This document shows, piece after piece, positions 1 to 3,636 of a DNA stretch of 43,242 bases. This stretch comes from Thermotogota bacterium (GTDB taxonomy: Bacteria; Thermotogota; Thermotogae; Petrotogales; Kosmotogaceae). The stretch is from assembly GCA_034660555.1 (NCBI GenBank), contig JAYEJL010000114.1:1-43242 (forward strand), in the 5' to 3' direction. Below the pieces are notes generated by a model. That model did no database searches, was not told the origin of the DNA, and was given only the letters and a program-made list of their open reading frames with translations. Both the position numbers and the translations under genes were made by a program. How positions within the stretch are numbered: position 1 is the stretch's first letter; the number at the start of each line of letters is the position of its first letter.

Positions 1-3
1 AAC

Positions 4-28
4 AAAAAAGGCACCCGTGTTGGGTGCC
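4..28 (-). terminator. Rho-independent terminator of the small-ORF operon
   Basis: GGCACCC-gtgtt-GGGTGCC stem (10-28) with A6 at 4-9, which is a U-tract on the minus strand, about 20 nt after the stop at 49. Confidence 0.85.
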
Positions 29-48
29 AAAAGTTTTGGTGGTACCGT

Positions 49-141
49 TCAGCTTCTCCAAAAGAGATCCTTCAGTGCTTTAAGTTTCTGCTGTTCAATC
101 ATTCTTTCCATATCTCTGGCATTTCTATATAATCTTTTCAT
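49..141 (-). CDS. 30-aa small protein MKRLYRNARDMERMIEQQKLKALKDLFWRS
   Basis: Manual translation; RBS AAAGGAGG at 151-158; 13/25 identities to the 300..407 peptide. Confidence 0.8.
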   Translation of the reverse strand: MKRLYRNARDMERMIEQQKLKALKDLFWRS

Positions 142-171
142 CGTTATCATCCTCCTTTAAAGTTTTACTTA

Positions 172-270
172 TTACCTGTAAACGTGAATTCTTTTAAGCG
201 TATCAATTCTAGTTGTTTCCAAAATATTATCTACTTCCTTGAAATGGATCTTCTTTTCTCTTTCTTTCAT
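172..270 (-). CDS. 32-aa small protein MKEREKKIHFKEVDNILETTRIDTLKRIHVYR
   Basis: Manual translation; purine-rich RBS AAAAGGGGGG 7 nt upstream; sits between two paralogous sORFs. Confidence 0.7.
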   Translation of the reverse strand: MKEREKKIHFKEVDNILETTRIDTLKRIHVYR

Positions 271-299
271 ATTGCAACCCCCCTTTTAAATAAGGATAG

Positions 300-407
300 T
301 CACACAGAAGCTCTTACATTGATGAGGAGATCCGAATAAACTTTTTCCTTCTGGGACTCAATAATTCTTTCGATGTTGCTGTAATTTCTAAATTTTCTTT
401 TGAACAT
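300..407 (-). CDS. 35-aa small protein MFKRKFRNYSNIERIIESQKEKVYSDLLINVRASV
   Basis: Manual translation; RBS AGGAGGGG at 413-420; paralog of 49..141. Confidence 0.8.
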   Translation of the reverse strand: MFKRKFRNYSNIERIIESQKEKVYSDLLINVRASV

Positions 408-445
408 TTCAACCCCTCCTAAACATTTCGTTGATTTCTATTTAT

Positions 446-474
446 AATATACACTTTAAATTTAATAATGTCAA
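446..474 (-). promoter_or_regulatory. Sigma70-type promoter for the small-ORF operon
   Basis: TTGACA (474-469), N17, TATATT (451-446) on the minus strand. Confidence 0.75.
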
Positions 475-706
475 GCAAAAAGTGAAGAAAGTTATAAAAT
501 AATTGAAAATATTCAAGAAAAGAATGACAACAGAACGAGAATAAGCGTCTGTAAACGCCATTAAAAAACAATTCTGGAAGGAAGATAAGAATTATAGAAC
601 AAATAAAAAATTGAAGAATATTTATAAAATTAAAGCATTATGAGTAAAAATTAATAATTACAGGTTTGTTTTTTGATAATTAAAATGAATAAGAAACATT
701 TTTCAT

Positions 707-730
707 AAAAAAACCTGGCATAAGCCAGGT
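707..730 (-). terminator. Rho-independent terminator
   Basis: ACCTGGC-ataa-GCCAGGT hairpin preceded by an A-run, just past the stop of 753..1586. Confidence 0.8.
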
Positions 731-752
731 CAATGAATGATTCTTTTTTAAA

Positions 753-1586
753 TCAATGAACGTTAAAGCCTATGCTCAAAATAAAGGTGGATAGGTTGTT
801 GCTTGTATAACCATCACTTAAATAGGTTTCAGTGTCCTGTGAAGTGCCTTCAGCTGTTCCACCAAGATATCTCAGGTTAATGTATGTATCTAAAGAATCG
901 CTAAGAATAAATCCCAGGTTTAAATTTGCGTCCAATATAGATCCTGTGAAATCATAATCAGCGCCATTAAACCATTTTGATGTAGCATAGAATCCATCTA
1001 CATCTGCTTCAATATAGAGTCCATTATTAAAAATGTATTTGCTGTATAACTTAATCACTGGAACAGGGCCAAGATTTTGATTGCCTACAAATTTGCTGCC
1101 ATCAATTGTTTCAAAAGAGATTGAAGCATTTCTTAACTGTAATGAAACTCCAATTGATAGTAAGAAATCATCTCTATTGATTAATCCATAAGTATAGCTA
1201 ACTCTCCAGAAAGGGAAGCTGTATTTAGCTAATAATGATTCATCTTTTAAAAACTCAATGTAGTCAATTTTCTTGTCTTCTTCCAGCAGAAATTTGGTGT
1301 TAATTTCTAAAGGCTGGTATAGAAAAGTAATGTTATGTCTTTCTCCAAGTCTTACTCCAATTTTATAATTATCAACAGGGAATAAAATATCCTGTCCGCC
1401 TTCTGAAACATAGTCAAACATATCACCGTCTTCACCAAATTGAAGCGTATGATTTAGTAACTTAACGAATCCTTTTTCATACGATAAAGAAAAGGAGTAC
1501 CACTTATCTGATTTGTTTAATAATCCAGTGGAGAATGCACTTATACCAATTAGTAAAATAAGAATAATCACAAAAGGATATTTCAT
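753..1586 (-). CDS. Exported protein, probable outer-membrane beta-barrel
   Basis: N-terminal signal peptide, alternating aromatic/hydrophobic strands, C-terminal ILSIGFNVH; GGAGG RBS. Confidence 0.65.
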   Translation of the reverse strand: MKYPFVIILILLIGISAFSTGLLNKSDKWYSFSLSYEKGFVKLLNHTLQFGEDGDMFDYVSEGGQDILFPVDNYKIGVRLGERHNITFLYQPLEINTKFLLEEDKKIDYIEFLKDESLLAKYSFPFWRVSYTYGLINRDDFLLSIGVSLQLRNASISFETIDGSKFVGNQNLGPVPVIKLYSKYIFNNGLYIEADVDGFYATSKWFNGADYDFTGSILDANLNLGFILSDSLDTYINLRYLGGTAEGTSQDTETYLSDGYTSNNLSTFILSIGFNVH

Positions 1587-1681
1587 ATTATTGCCTCCAG
1601 TTTATTAATTACACTAATTATACTTCAAAACAAGCTAAATTGTAATGATTATAAATTATTTAAGGAACATTTCGAACTCTC

Positions 1682-1713
1682 AAAAAAACCCATCTATTGT
1701 GATAATAGATGGG
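1682..1713 (-). terminator. Rho-independent terminator after the oppB-like gene
   Basis: CCCATCTATT-gtgat-AATAGATGGG with A7 at 1682-1688. Confidence 0.85.
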
Positions 1714-1768
1714 AGTGTAAACTGTTTAACAGATTTATATTTTCACTGTAACAGAAAAGGTTTATTTA

Positions 1769-2806
1769 TTAATATAATCTAACTCTTGGATCGAAGTAGC
1801 TATATGCGATATCTACAATGATATTTATTACAACTACGAATAAACACAAAACAAACGCGCAAGATACAACAGTTATGTGATCAAGCTGTCTTCCAGCTGT
1901 AGCCATCATATTTCCAATACCGGGTCTATCAAACAATGCTTCGACAATGACAACTCCGCCTATTAACTGCACAAGAACATTTCCTGATACAGTAGTGATC
2001 GGTATGAGTGCGTTCTTTCTGGCGTGTTTTTTTAGTACCGTACTTTCTTTAAGAGCTTTTGAGCGAGCTGTCCTGATATAATTATTGTGCATAACTTCTA
2101 TGATACTTGCGCGAGTCATTCTAATAACATAAGCTCCCCACATAACTACAAGAGTTAAAGCAGGTTCTATTAAGTTTATTAATCCGTCAAGCAGCACTTT
2201 TGGGTTGAAATTCAAAATTGAATCGATAATTACCGAGTTTGTGTATGTGTTTCATTCAGGACTTTTGATAATATAATAACTTTCTAGTGAAACAGGTCCT
2301 TTAGGAAACCAGTGAAAAACATTTAAAACAACTACAAAAATTATCAATCCCATTATAAATTCAGGTATAGACCAGCTAACTACACTAACTCCATTAATTA
2401 TGTCATCAGAAACTGTTTCATACCTTCTAGTAGCTGTGGTGCCAACAGTTATACCAAGTAATACAATAAAGACAATTGAGAACAAGACTAATTCAAGAGT
2501 TTTGGGAAGCCTTTCGATTATTGAATTGTAAATAAAATCTCTGGTTGTGAAAGAATAACCCCAATCGCCTTTAACTAAATTTCTTAACCATTTGAAATAT
2601 GCAATAGGTAGAGGATCATCCAGACCGTATTTTTCTATAAGACGCTCTTCAGTTTCTGGAACAATCATCAATACTCTAGGATTTGTTACATATGACATAA
2701 CAAGTGTTTGTGGTCCAAGAGACCAGATCATAGAAAATGCCAATAAAGTTACACCAAAAATAATTAAAGGAATAAAAATCAATCTTCTTATAGTATAGGC
2801 CAACAA
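1769..2806 (-). pseudogene. Oligopeptide/dipeptide ABC permease (OppB/DppB family) interrupted by one in-frame TGA at 2252-2254
   Basis: The two ORF-track pieces share a frame (...SPE*NTYTNSVIIDSILNFNP...); YTIRRL start, YGLDDPL..YF.WL, EAA-type YIRTARSK, DPRVR end. Confidence 0.85.
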
Positions 2807-2955
2807 TTGCTTTCACCACTTTTGAGAAAAATGTTGTTTGACTTATAGTGGTTATACGTTATTCAACCAGCGAAATCAAATTCTTCACTCGTAACCACCT
2901 TTATGAGGTAATGTGACGATTTTTTGATAGAATATTACTAATCGGGAGGGACTAA

Positions 2956-3636
2956 GTGGAAACTGAAATCACATTACAGGATATTTTAAAGAGAAAATCT
3001 GTACGTGCATACAAGGATATAGCTTTAACACAGGGAGATATTGATTCGATAAAATCTCTTTTTGGTTCAATACGCAATATTTCAGTCAATCTAAACTGGA
3101 AAATCAGTTCAGATACTCCTGTTGGCTCAGGGTGCATTTATGCGCAAATTGAAGAGAAAAATAACGATAATCTTGTTGATTATGGTTTTCAGGGACAGCA
3201 AATATTAATGTTATTGTTTGTTAATGATTACGGAACTTGCTGGATGGCAAAATCTCCTGAAAAAAATGTGCCTGCCATAATTACTTTTGGTTTTCCTAAA
3301 GATAAAAAAAGTTTGAAGAGCAGAATTTCCAGATATATTTCACAGGGGGACAAAAGGAAGCCTTTGAATGTGCTTTATGAGAAAAATGTTGAGGAACTGA
3401 ATAAAAGTCAAAAAAAGTTACTTGAAGCTATTCGCTGGTCACCTTCTTCTCTTAACAGACAACCCTGGAAGTTCAAATTTACTGAAAAAGGAAAGAAGCT
3501 GATCTTAAAAAGCAGTTCTCCAATAAATCTTGGTATCGCTTTAAGTAACGCCTACATGGCGGCTTTAAGCATATTCGGAAAGGCTAAAGTAGAAAAAGTT
3601 GAAGACAATGTCTATGCGTTGACTGTTAGAGAATAG
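2956..3636 (+). CDS. Nitroreductase family protein
   Basis: RKSVRAY at the N-terminus and WSPSSLNRQPWKF motif; GGGAGGG RBS before GTG. Confidence 0.8.
   Translation: METEITLQDILKRKSVRAYKDIALTQGDIDSIKSLFGSIRNISVNLNWKISSDTPVGSGCIYAQIEEKNNDNLVDYGFQGQQILMLLFVNDYGTCWMAKSPEKNVPAIITFGFPKDKKSLKSRISRYISQGDKRKPLNVLYEKNVEELNKSQKKLLEAIRWSPSSLNRQPWKFKFTEKGKKLILKSSSPINLGIALSNAYMAALSIFGKAKVEKVEDNVYALTVRE

Follow-up and report, generated by a model that had tools for sequence, protein, structure and literature searches.

Small basic cytoplasmic regulators of ~30-60 residues are known from Firmicutes: the Fur-regulated basic proteins FbpA/B/C and the kinase inhibitor Sda act by binding a partner, not by catalysis. 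Tandem genes for related cationic, helical peptides of ~30 residues are found in leaderless multi-peptide bacteriocins such as aureocin A70 and garvicin KS, whose peptides are amphiphilic and membrane-active, hydrophobic and with few acidic residues. The operon presented here bears comparison with both, and also with ribosomal protein bS21 (PF01165). With FbpA/B/C and Sda its products share the size class and a basic, helical and cytoplasmic nature. The genes of those regulators are single, however, while the present family forms tandem arrays of paralogues, and no Pfam or NCBIfam match to the FbpA/B/C or Sda families appeared at E up to 10 for our three peptides, or up to 1 for 39 aligned family members. 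A likeness of the first peptide to Hha/YmoA (PF05321), where its residues 3-28 weakly match profile positions 3-28 of 57 in the first helix region, was rejected as identity: at 12.7 bits against a cut-off of 25 (E 0.16) and in one of 39 members, we read it as a chance resemblance of charged helices.

The operon lies at the beginning of a 43,242-nucleotide stretch of Thermotogota bacterium DNA (contig JAYEJL010000114.1), hereafter the window. Positions 659-1 on the minus strand constitute a self-contained transcription unit, with a strong sigma-70-type promoter, three short open reading frames (sORFs) and an intrinsic terminator. The whole cassette (1..659, minus strand), ~655 bp long with an upstream block included, is copy A of three, as BLASTN of the first kilobase against the rest of this genome shows. 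Its promoter, TTGACA-17-TATATT (446..474, minus strand; -35 at 474-469, -10 at 451-446), matches the consensus at 11 of 12 positions. It is the best promoter-like site in 1..1800, where the count of such sites (10 found, 9.4 expected) is not above chance. All on the minus strand of the ORF list, sORF 1 (300..407, stop at 300-302) encodes 35 aa of the 'PRF-related' subtype, sORF 2 (172..270) 32 aa of the 'Ile-His-Tyr/Phe' subtype, and sORF 3 (49..141) a 30-aa paralogue of sORF 1 by BLASTP. For the last, a 33-aa form starting at ATG 150 is listed as well; the ATG at 141 is better spaced from the ribosome-binding site, and its counterpart is the sole sORF 3 start in a copy from a genus relative (G003). 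Each of the three sORFs is preceded by a GGAGG/GGGGGG-type ribosome-binding site. The terminator (1..28, minus strand), located by a hairpin scan, consists of a hairpin at 28-10, with a 7-bp stem containing 6 G-C pairs, followed by a T-run; such sites are in excess (4 observed, 0.5 expected in shuffles), and this one is kept at the end of all three genome copies, where similarity stops. A preliminary description had already recognised these elements from the letters of the DNA: its sORF coordinates agree with the ORF list, and its strong ribosome-binding sites, promoter and terminator are all present.

Upstream of the promoter lies an AT-rich block (475..659) with ~88% conservation among the copies of the genus. 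Neither of its strands has an ORF that begins with a start codon, and the block is not conserved in a diverged two-peptide locus. Coding on the opposite strand was rejected because a start codon is missing and because a T-run differs by one base in length from copy to copy, which argues against translation of this block. A 14-nt inverted repeat 5' of the promoter was discarded as an operator too: the copies do not share it, and 11 unrelated sites in the genome match it with one mismatch. Zero-mismatch occurrences of the 19-nt -10 box in the genome are limited to the three cassettes. Rfam gave one match in window positions 1-3000, to PrrF; it falls outside the cassette and, at 22.7 bits, below the gathering score of 90.

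The unit is not unique: it is a three-copy repeat of ~90% identity in this genome, the flanks of the copies being unrelated. BLASTN matches lie at C7:5088-5744 (90%), C83:12340-12838 (91%) and C20:4244-4484 (91%), contigs C83 and C20 overlapping exactly by 82 nt; a further match at 100% (C141:1671-1797) corresponds to a 127-nt contig overlap. The cassette is found in all four genus relatives, with copies at orthologous positions. Paralogous copies in this genome are 90-91% identical. G003a, one of the two copies in G003, shares 86.8% with its sister copy but 82-84% with the copies of other genomes, which suggests some gene conversion. Unbroken in all three genome copies and in the relatives is sORF 1; the ATG of sORF 2 is replaced by ATA in copies B and C, and a premature TAG interrupts sORF 3 in copy B. 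Individual genes are thus dispensable. All genus copies keep the promoter core, as do the diverged two-peptide locus and three other genera.

The dN/dS analysis proposed in the preliminary description gave values far below 1 for all three frames in all pairwise comparisons. For sORF 1, dN is 0.00-0.02 against a dS of 0.05-0.23 among close copies; for sORF 2 against the G003 copy, dN is 0.039 and dS 0.88; for sORF 3, copies A and C differ by four synonymous changes and no non-synonymous one. Frames and ribosome-binding sites are retained in diverged copies, and conservation reaches four further genera. Since paralogues and these genera alike keep the frames, the ribosome-binding sites and the promoter core, with low dN/dS, the features of the operon are more than chance. 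Peptides 1 and 3 align without gaps, as had been claimed, with 13 of 26 identities and a pairwise BLASTP E of 5e-8. Peptide 2, rightly described as the more distant one, is linked to them more weakly (profile-profile E = 5e-5, probability 66%) and fits one nearly gap-free family alignment of 39 sequences. We are therefore highly confident that these are real, translated small-protein genes of one family.

A profile of 17 peptides of the genus found seven matches among 1,835,955,588 entries in a protein-representative search, all of this lineage. In a six-frame search of the order, 16 of the 24 other Kosmotogaceae genomes were positive, and none of the 26 genomes of the sister family. The 39-row profile, which includes sequences from several of the genomes it matches, raised this to 19 of 24, with no match in 126 genomes of ten other Thermotogota families; such a search across the phylum had been suggested as a check, and conserved frames are what it found. 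Against profile A1, which was built from these very sORFs and other genus sequences, the three sORFs of the window reach 56.7-65.6 bits (E 7.6e-15 to 1.2e-17); independent support comes from relatives in other genera, absent from A1, which match it at up to E 9e-10. A locus search with the sORF-1 alignment (A2) yielded seven loci, whose MAGs carry the labels Kosmotogaceae, Petrotogales or uncultured Thermotogaceae. Among the genomes searched, the family is thus restricted to Kosmotogaceae. Within them, profile searches found no member in the three genomes of one genus (g6).

Arrays of the family hold two to five tandem paralogues behind the same conserved promoter core; genus g2 has a single member at the one locus examined. 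Two subtypes can be told apart. The first, that of sORF 2, carries an invariant Ile-His-Tyr/Phe close to the N-terminus; it is the most widely conserved and occurs in every locus examined in four genera. The second has, as a rule, Pro-Arg-(Gly)-Phe or a variant of it at its end. Both are co-encoded at every locus examined in four genera. In the window operon, too, the conserved promoter core precedes one or more Ile-His-Tyr/Phe-type members together with one or more of another type. A pattern of the Ile-His-Tyr subtype matched 37 stretches in viral contigs, with no relative among them. That the family would not be readily recognised also holds: no significant match for the peptides exists in Pfam, NCBIfam or PDB, and the closest ESM Atlas clusters are unnamed hypothetical proteins, with low recognition. 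It is an undescribed small-protein family, some relatives of which are already annotated as hypothetical proteins.

The cultivated species Kosmotoga olearia provides examples. Kole_0942, Kole_1415 and Kole_1416 of strain TBF 19.5.1 are listed as 'hypothetical protein' in the rows of Table S2 of PMC5674127 that concern them, and profile matches in genome G007 coincide exactly with the translation start and stop coordinates given there. The earlier term 'unannotated' therefore does not suit the family at large: relatives of the window peptides are annotated as hypothetical proteins in the K. olearia genome and also occur in protein collections. The three are true family members: tandem, with the same promoter core and with both subtypes represented, although their loci hold two genes each and the window cassette three. 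For a truncated 24-aa member upstream of Kole_0942, a search of Table S2 by coordinates returned no row (PMC5674127). The three locus tags are not named in the paper texts of the literature searched, nor are these genes mentioned in the passages of a Mesotoga preprint (10.1101/322537) retrieved by search terms.

Hints on expression come from two sources. RNA-library contigs on the peptide region derive from four libraries of four studies: X16 spans all of 1-1000, X17 covers 158-405, X18 152-405 and 152-275, and X20 168-261 and 235-427. The last three libraries have no contigs over window positions 1-150 and 443-1000, gaps that were not counted as evidence. Such libraries may contain DNA, so these contigs cannot prove transcription. 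In K. olearia, Rockhopper assigned the relatives to transcription units, as given in the corresponding rows of Table S2 (PMC5674127). In the same rows, RPKM for the three is 0 in 11 Illumina libraries except two with 2-9, and 4-64 in two of four Ion Torrent libraries (PMC5674127). The relatives could thus be near-silent in exponential growth. A read-length or mapping artefact is as likely, because another 99-nt gene listed there shows the same pattern, while 114-nt genes reach up to 113 RPKM, one of them with 0 in two libraries (PMC5674127).

Across the 39 aligned members, the median pI is 10.0, net charge +1 to +7 and median GRAVY -0.92; 41% of residues are charged, Cys is absent, and Gly and Trp almost so. 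Eleven members of the genus have 3-6 Asp/Glu per peptide. No signal peptide or hydrophobic stretch was found in any of the 39, and AlphaFold2, run on the window's 35-aa peptide with the 39-row alignment, returned a single helix over residues 2-34 (mean pLDDT 79), in accord with the basic, helical, leaderless peptides that had been anticipated. Paralogy, dN/dS and the hydrophilic, basic, Cys-free composition all agree with the view of an expanded family of small cytoplasmic proteins. A heteromer prediction of peptides 1, 2 and 3 with alignments A2, A4 and A5, made without controls, gave a score of 0.02 (mark 0.32), a result that weighs neither way. No enzyme or transporter gene is linked to the family: at 19 loci (~1.5 kb flanks), the 39 ORFs in the neighbourhood belong to unrelated Pfam families, and GNAT genes near three loci were rejected as linked partners, not being orthologous.

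The best overall explanation, which we hold with about even confidence, is that of a translated Kosmotogaceae family of soluble cytoplasmic proteins that bind a partner, by a mechanism that we infer. The peptides would stay in the cytoplasm and act stoichiometrically, binding a macromolecular partner: a protein or a nucleic acid, for instance the ribosome. Contact would be made through the conserved charged face of the helix, with its acidic/basic/Glu/Lys columns at i, i+1, i+4 and i+7, and through the aromatic C-terminal end. Several tandem genes and several copies of the cassette would raise the dose. Because the two subtypes, both ancient, occur jointly at each locus in four genera, they probably work together. 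That they do so as a pair of cytoplasmic binding modulators is a tentative proposal, somewhat less than evenly probable.

Other readings start from the layout of the operon. Three (elsewhere two to five) related, cationic, helical, leaderless peptides of 30-35 aa, in tandem in one operon, could recall a leaderless multi-peptide bacteriocin, exported without a leader and jointly killing competitors; we consider this very unlikely. In contrast to aureocin A70 and garvicin KS, the family is very hydrophilic rather than amphiphilic, with abundant acidic residues; the loci examined have neither an ABC transporter nor an immunity-like membrane gene beside them, and inheritance is vertical, at syntenic positions across a bacterial family and in multiple copies, unlike strain-specific bacteriocin loci. 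Many tandem paralogous genes in several loci, with a conserved helical part, a more variable tail and an aromatic residue at or near the C-terminus, would also suit precursors of RiPPs or signalling peptides, in which the helix is the leader, the tail the core and the enzyme encoded elsewhere. We give this equally little credence: no maturase, protease or exporter occurs near any locus scanned, and the alignment has no double-glycine or other cleavage motif, besides the absence of Cys. The constant pairing of subtypes in four genera, together with the repeated cassette and its signs of gene conversion, might point to a toxin/antidote-like pair or another self-maintaining repeat whose subtypes neutralise each other. 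Its probability is nonetheless very low, as the cassette lacks a recombinase, with no terminal repeats noticed in the alignments, and different species carry it at orthologous positions. Known protein toxins of such pairs are far longer than these peptides, which have no hydrophobic membrane helix, unlike type I toxins, and copies survive in which the second or third gene is broken. It is just as improbable that the sORFs are regulatory leader peptides, their translation mainly controlling read-through into a downstream gene. An FMN-reductase-like gene does follow the diverged two-peptide locus by ~40 nt with no terminator between, and a DEAD-box helicase gene lies downstream of copy A on the same strand, but the amino-acid sequences are under purifying selection and conserved across genera, the downstream genes vary from locus to locus, and the cassette has its own strong terminator.

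Ribosome binding, one of the functions offered as examples in the preliminary description, has gained what may be a weak lead. In a stronger form, the peptides would be ribosome- or RNA-binding mini-proteins whose basic helices dock on rRNA and partly replace bS21, like small lineage-specific ribosomal peptides; this we regard as unlikely. bS21 is small, basic and helical like the family, and one subtype of the related genus g5, which has 3-Mb genomes, aligns with the first 25 positions of its profile: four of seven 'first-gene' peptides hit Pfam Ribosomal_S21 in the same register, their residues 3-25 falling on positions 3-25 of 55, at E 0.003-0.02, and one g5 peptide matches TIGR00030 at E 0.006. 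The basic, hydrophilic composition is in line with RNA binding. In six-frame searches with PF01165, none of 51 genomes of the order and one of 151 in the phylum exceeded the cut-off, so that the bS21 site would be vacant. Against this, the g5 scores of 15-18 bits remain below the curated cut-off of 27, and a scan of 39 members against 24,736 models should yield about one such match by chance. The likeness is confined to one subtype of another genus: the window's three peptides do not match S21 at E up to 10. Profile A6 of the S21-like subtype retrieved no bS21 chain from 177,635 PDB sequences at E up to 10, nor did A3, and bS21 is twice as long as the peptides. A homologue search with the first 56 residues of the one S21-like protein of Thermotogota gave no candidates, and tblastn of that protein against phage records gave no match. 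There is only a slim chance that the family descends from the N-terminal half of bS21, or came to resemble it by convergence, and fills an empty site in Thermotogota ribosomes, its paralogues and copies being condition-dependent, exchangeable 'mini-S21' variants that tune translation initiation. If the bS21 lead were true, it would bear on how ribosomes without bS21 are completed.

Whichever partner the proposed cytoplasmic binders may have, no part of bacterial proteomes is less well charted than the proteins below 50 aa, and this family is a clean case: it has no detectable relatives outside Kosmotogaceae, purifying selection, tandem paralogues, a conserved strong promoter and several loci per genome. 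Its members in the cultivated K. olearia make the function testable. Kosmotogaceae stand out among Thermotogota by a wide or low growth-temperature range, according to PMC5674127. In view of this distinctive range, a module that is confined to the family and looks highly expressed may reasonably be considered as a lineage trait.

The preliminary description had proposed an operon of three related small peptides with its own promoter and terminator. The ORF listing confirms three tandem sORFs on the minus strand: sORF 1 (407-300, 35 aa), sORF 2 (270-172, 32 aa) and sORF 3 (141-49, 30 aa), all preceded by a strong ribosome-binding site of the GGAGG or G-run type. The gap-free alignment of peptides 1 and 3 proved correct (13/26 identities, pairwise E = 5e-8), and peptide 2 is, as described, only loosely similar, a more distant relative (profile-profile E = 5e-5, probability 66%). 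Both ends of the unit also hold up. The promoter-like site TTGACA-17-TATATT (474-446, minus strand) has 11/12 matches and scores highest in the first 1.8 kb. Promoter-like sites in the region are not above chance (10 vs 9.4 in shuffles), so the case for a promoter is its conservation: its core is the best-conserved non-coding stretch in all genera and in a second, diverged two-peptide locus of the window's genus. This core runs from the -35 element over a constant-length spacer and the -10 element to about ten bases past it, with TG ahead of the -10 element in most copies. Downstream of the sORFs lies a G+C-rich terminator hairpin with a T-run (28-10, minus strand), and such sites are enriched (4 vs 0.5 expected). 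The cassette has no match in Rfam.

Upstream of the promoter, the repeated unit includes some 190 nt of AT-rich sequence (475-659), roughly 88% identical among genus copies, in which neither strand has an ORF with a start codon. This block contains a small hairpin (559-544), which in one copy carries a compensatory change on both stem sides; the block is not present in the diverged locus. Directly upstream of the cassette, a minus-strand ORF of 277 aa (753-1586) has a hydrophobic N-terminus and its own terminator (731-712). Pfam and NCBIfam searches at E up to 10 return nothing for it, and its composition resembles that of a beta-rich envelope protein.

In the genome's own assembly (2.1 Mb, 188 contigs, the window being C114), positions 1-659 are repeated at C7:5088-5744 (90% identity) and at the ends of C83 and C20 (91% each). 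C141 ends in the same 127 nt with which the window begins, and C83 and C20 share an exact overlap of 82 nt. The genome therefore holds three cassette copies, 90-91% identical: A (C141/C114, joined by the 127-nt overlap), B (C7) and C (C83/C20, joined by the 82-nt overlap). They are alike from about 190 nt upstream of the promoter to directly past the terminator, and their flanks are unrelated. sORF 1 is intact in all three. In copies B and C the ATG of sORF 2 is changed to ATA; sORF 3 is interrupted by a premature TAG in copy B and intact in copy C. The repeat breaks the assembly, with four contig ends inside it (the window start and the ends of C141, C83 and C20).

The cassette was found in all four relatives of the genus. 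Judged by flanks, copy A has orthologous counterparts in relatives G001 and G003; those of copy B are in G002 and G003. The diverged locus occurs in three genomes of the genus, with one sORF 1-like and one sORF 2-like gene behind the same promoter core and ribosome-binding site. Across related copies, pairwise Nei-Gojobori estimates place dN far below dS in all three frames. For sORF 1, dN is 0.00-0.02 vs a dS of 0.05-0.23 among close copies, and 0.20-0.32 vs 0.39-2.4 against the diverged locus; for sORF 2 the values are 0.039 and 0.88, and sORF 3 differs between copies A and C by four synonymous and no non-synonymous changes. The two G003 copies are 86.8% identical to each other, while one of them, G003a, reaches only 82-84% with the copies of other genomes; this closer resemblance within a genome points to some gene conversion between cassette copies.

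A profile of 17 genus peptides, run against 1,835,955,588 protein representatives, retrieved seven proteins at E up to 0.001, all variants of the profiled peptides and one of them more diverged. In a six-frame search of the order, 17/51 genomes were positive, own genome counted: 16 of the 24 other genomes of the family (Kosmotogaceae) and none of 26 in the sister family. We then used a 39-row alignment that adds members of four more genera. At the phylum level it matched, again in a six-frame search, 20/151 genomes, namely 19/24 other genomes of the family and none of 126 in ten other Thermotogota families; the alignment includes sequences from several genomes that it matches, and new information comes from G019, from three g2 genomes and from the 126 misses. 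The closest public contigs are MAGs titled Kosmotogaceae, Petrotogales or uncultured Thermotogaceae, and no relative of the Ile-His-Tyr pattern was found in viral contigs. Altogether, the data show a polycistronic operon for small proteins that is conserved, stands alone, has been amplified within genomes and is limited, among the genomes searched, to one bacterial family.

Array layout, read by hmmsearch of RBS-preceded sORFs in fetched loci, differs by genus: five tandem genes in g5 (genomes of about 3 Mb), three in g3 (with two loci in one genome), two at each of two loci in g4, and just one member in g2, where one locus was examined. Aligned nearly gap-free, the 39 sequences share a plan of basic N-terminal cluster, core helix and aromatic C-terminal end; in the core helix, hydrophobic, acidic, basic, Glu and Lys/Arg positions are conserved. 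One subtype carries an invariant Ile-His-Tyr/Phe near the N-terminus (His in 13/13 sequences of its alignment); the remaining members often end in Pro-Arg-(Gly)-Phe. Each locus examined in the window's genus, g3, g4 and g5 encodes at least one member of both subtypes. In K. olearia, a truncated member of 24 aa with a ribosome-binding site (L057:1609-1680) lies between the conserved promoter and Kole_0942; its start coordinate matches no row in the published transcription-unit table (PMC5674127).

Members are 24-35 aa long, basic (median pI 10.0, net charge +1 to +7) and hydrophilic (median GRAVY -0.92, median 41% charged residues), with no Cys and, over all 39, 12 Gly and 4 Trp. AlphaFold2, given the family alignment, models sORF 1 as a single helix (residues 2-34; pLDDT mean 79, core 93). 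As the preliminary description had it, signal peptides are lacking: the alignment shows neither these nor a hydrophobic segment. The window peptides have no significant match in Pfam and NCBIfam (only Hha, E 0.16), the family alignment finds nothing significant among PDB sequences (best E 0.39), and ESM Atlas returns only unnamed clusters. The family is thus undescribed, with no Pfam or NCBIfam entry, no solved relative and no paper by locus tag. It is not strictly unannotated, as had been claimed: Table S2 of PMC5674127 lists K. olearia members as 'hypothetical protein', so members are already called in at least one published genome.

Neighbouring genes vary locus by locus. Among 45 large neighbouring ORFs in 20 loci, 39 were scanned with Pfam; six were set aside, namely a piece of a disrupted FMN-reductase gene and five ORFs that either overlap the sORF arrays from the opposite strand or sit where a contig ends. 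Left of the window, C141 carries a gene for a DEAD-box RNA helicase with a DeaD dimerisation domain (C141:172-1521, minus), on the same strand as copy A and about 160 nt downstream of its terminator. Copy B is flanked by a pyridine-nucleotide-disulphide oxidoreductase and a PD-(D/E)XK protein, copy C by GNAT-domain and SpoIID-domain proteins, g3 loci by a class II aminoacyl-tRNA synthetase and an amidohydrolase, and g5 loci by an amidohydrolase or methyltransferase. The GNAT genes that stand near three loci are no orthologues of one another. In three genus genomes (L022:1581-2557, L031:1550-2514, L021:208-1179), an FMN-reductase/iron-sulfur-flavoprotein-like gene follows the peptides of the diverged locus, and a scan of the G004 locus found no terminator-like site in between; the divergent gene ahead encodes a protein of 365-367 aa carrying an HTH_20 domain at its C-terminus. 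G002 has the flavoprotein gene broken into two frames, and the second peptide of G004 has ATC where others have ATG.

Part of the stretch occurs in 21 public runs, six of them RNA libraries; we compared contigs from four RNA libraries of four studies. One contig covers 158-405 (X17), two cover 152-405 and 152-275 (X18), and two cover 168-261 and 235-427 (X20), the last running into adapter sequence from 427, near the predicted transcript start. X16 contigs span all of 1-1000: among those listed, depth is 6-216 within the cassette and 8-26 for two pieces over or reaching the upstream gene. In all four libraries the contigs represent relatives in mixed communities, depth pools several copies and organisms, and DNA may be present. 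We read them as no more than a weak hint of transcription of the cassette region in oil-field and saline samples.

In K. olearia, the profile matches coincide exactly with start and stop coordinates in Table S2 of PMC5674127, for Kole_0942 (996225-996130) and the two-gene unit Kole_1415-Kole_1416 (1509572-1509347). There Rockhopper assigned all three to transcription units; the tags are not named in the text of the papers searched. In Table S4, their RPKM is 0 across 11 Illumina libraries except for 2.3-8.8 in two, and 4-64 in two of four Ion Torrent libraries, the highest values (15 and 64) coming from a late-log 40 degree culture. Four other very short genes were compared. One of them, Kole_0195 (99 nt), has the same Illumina-zero pattern: all four genes of 96-99 nt that were examined are at 0 in all but one or two Illumina libraries and nonzero in two Ion Torrent libraries. 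The other three, each 114 nt long, reach up to 113 RPKM, with values in nearly all libraries (one is at 0 in two). By this comparison the zeros may be artefacts of read length or mapping that hide genes shorter than the reads, and are not taken as evidence for a silent operon.

The first gene of the g5 arrays raises a low-probability relation to ribosomal protein bS21, a protein nearly lacking in the phylum (over the cut-off in 0/51 order genomes and 1/151 phylum genomes): four of its seven variants match Pfam Ribosomal_S21 in register (E 0.003-0.02), but at 15-18 bits vs a cut-off of 27, and about one match of such strength is expected when 39 sequences are scanned. Furthermore, the reciprocal PDB search found no bS21, and the window's own peptides do not match Ribosomal_S21. 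The sole PF01165 match over the cut-off in a six-frame search of the 151 Thermotogota genomes is a 111-aa ORF in an 89%-complete MAG (L075:1324-1659), whose N-terminal S21 domain is followed by an unrelated C-terminal extension. Each of the alternative readings, as a bacteriocin, RiPP, toxin pair or leader peptide, is contradicted by one or more tested features. The scanned neighbours include no maturase, exporter, immunity gene or recombinase.

The cautious reading of the preliminary description, an expanded family of small cytoplasmic proteins, is supported by dN/dS, composition and the helix model: the genes are paralogous, multi-copy and under purifying selection, and their products hydrophilic and basic. 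These would be soluble cytoplasmic helices that may act by binding, since neither an enzyme nor a membrane protein would be so small and so charged; the conserved polar face and aromatic tail resemble an interaction surface. Constant co-encoding suggests that the two subtypes act together. We regard this orphan small-protein family as moderately interesting: it is well defined and experimentally accessible, and its tandem multi-copy layout is unusual.
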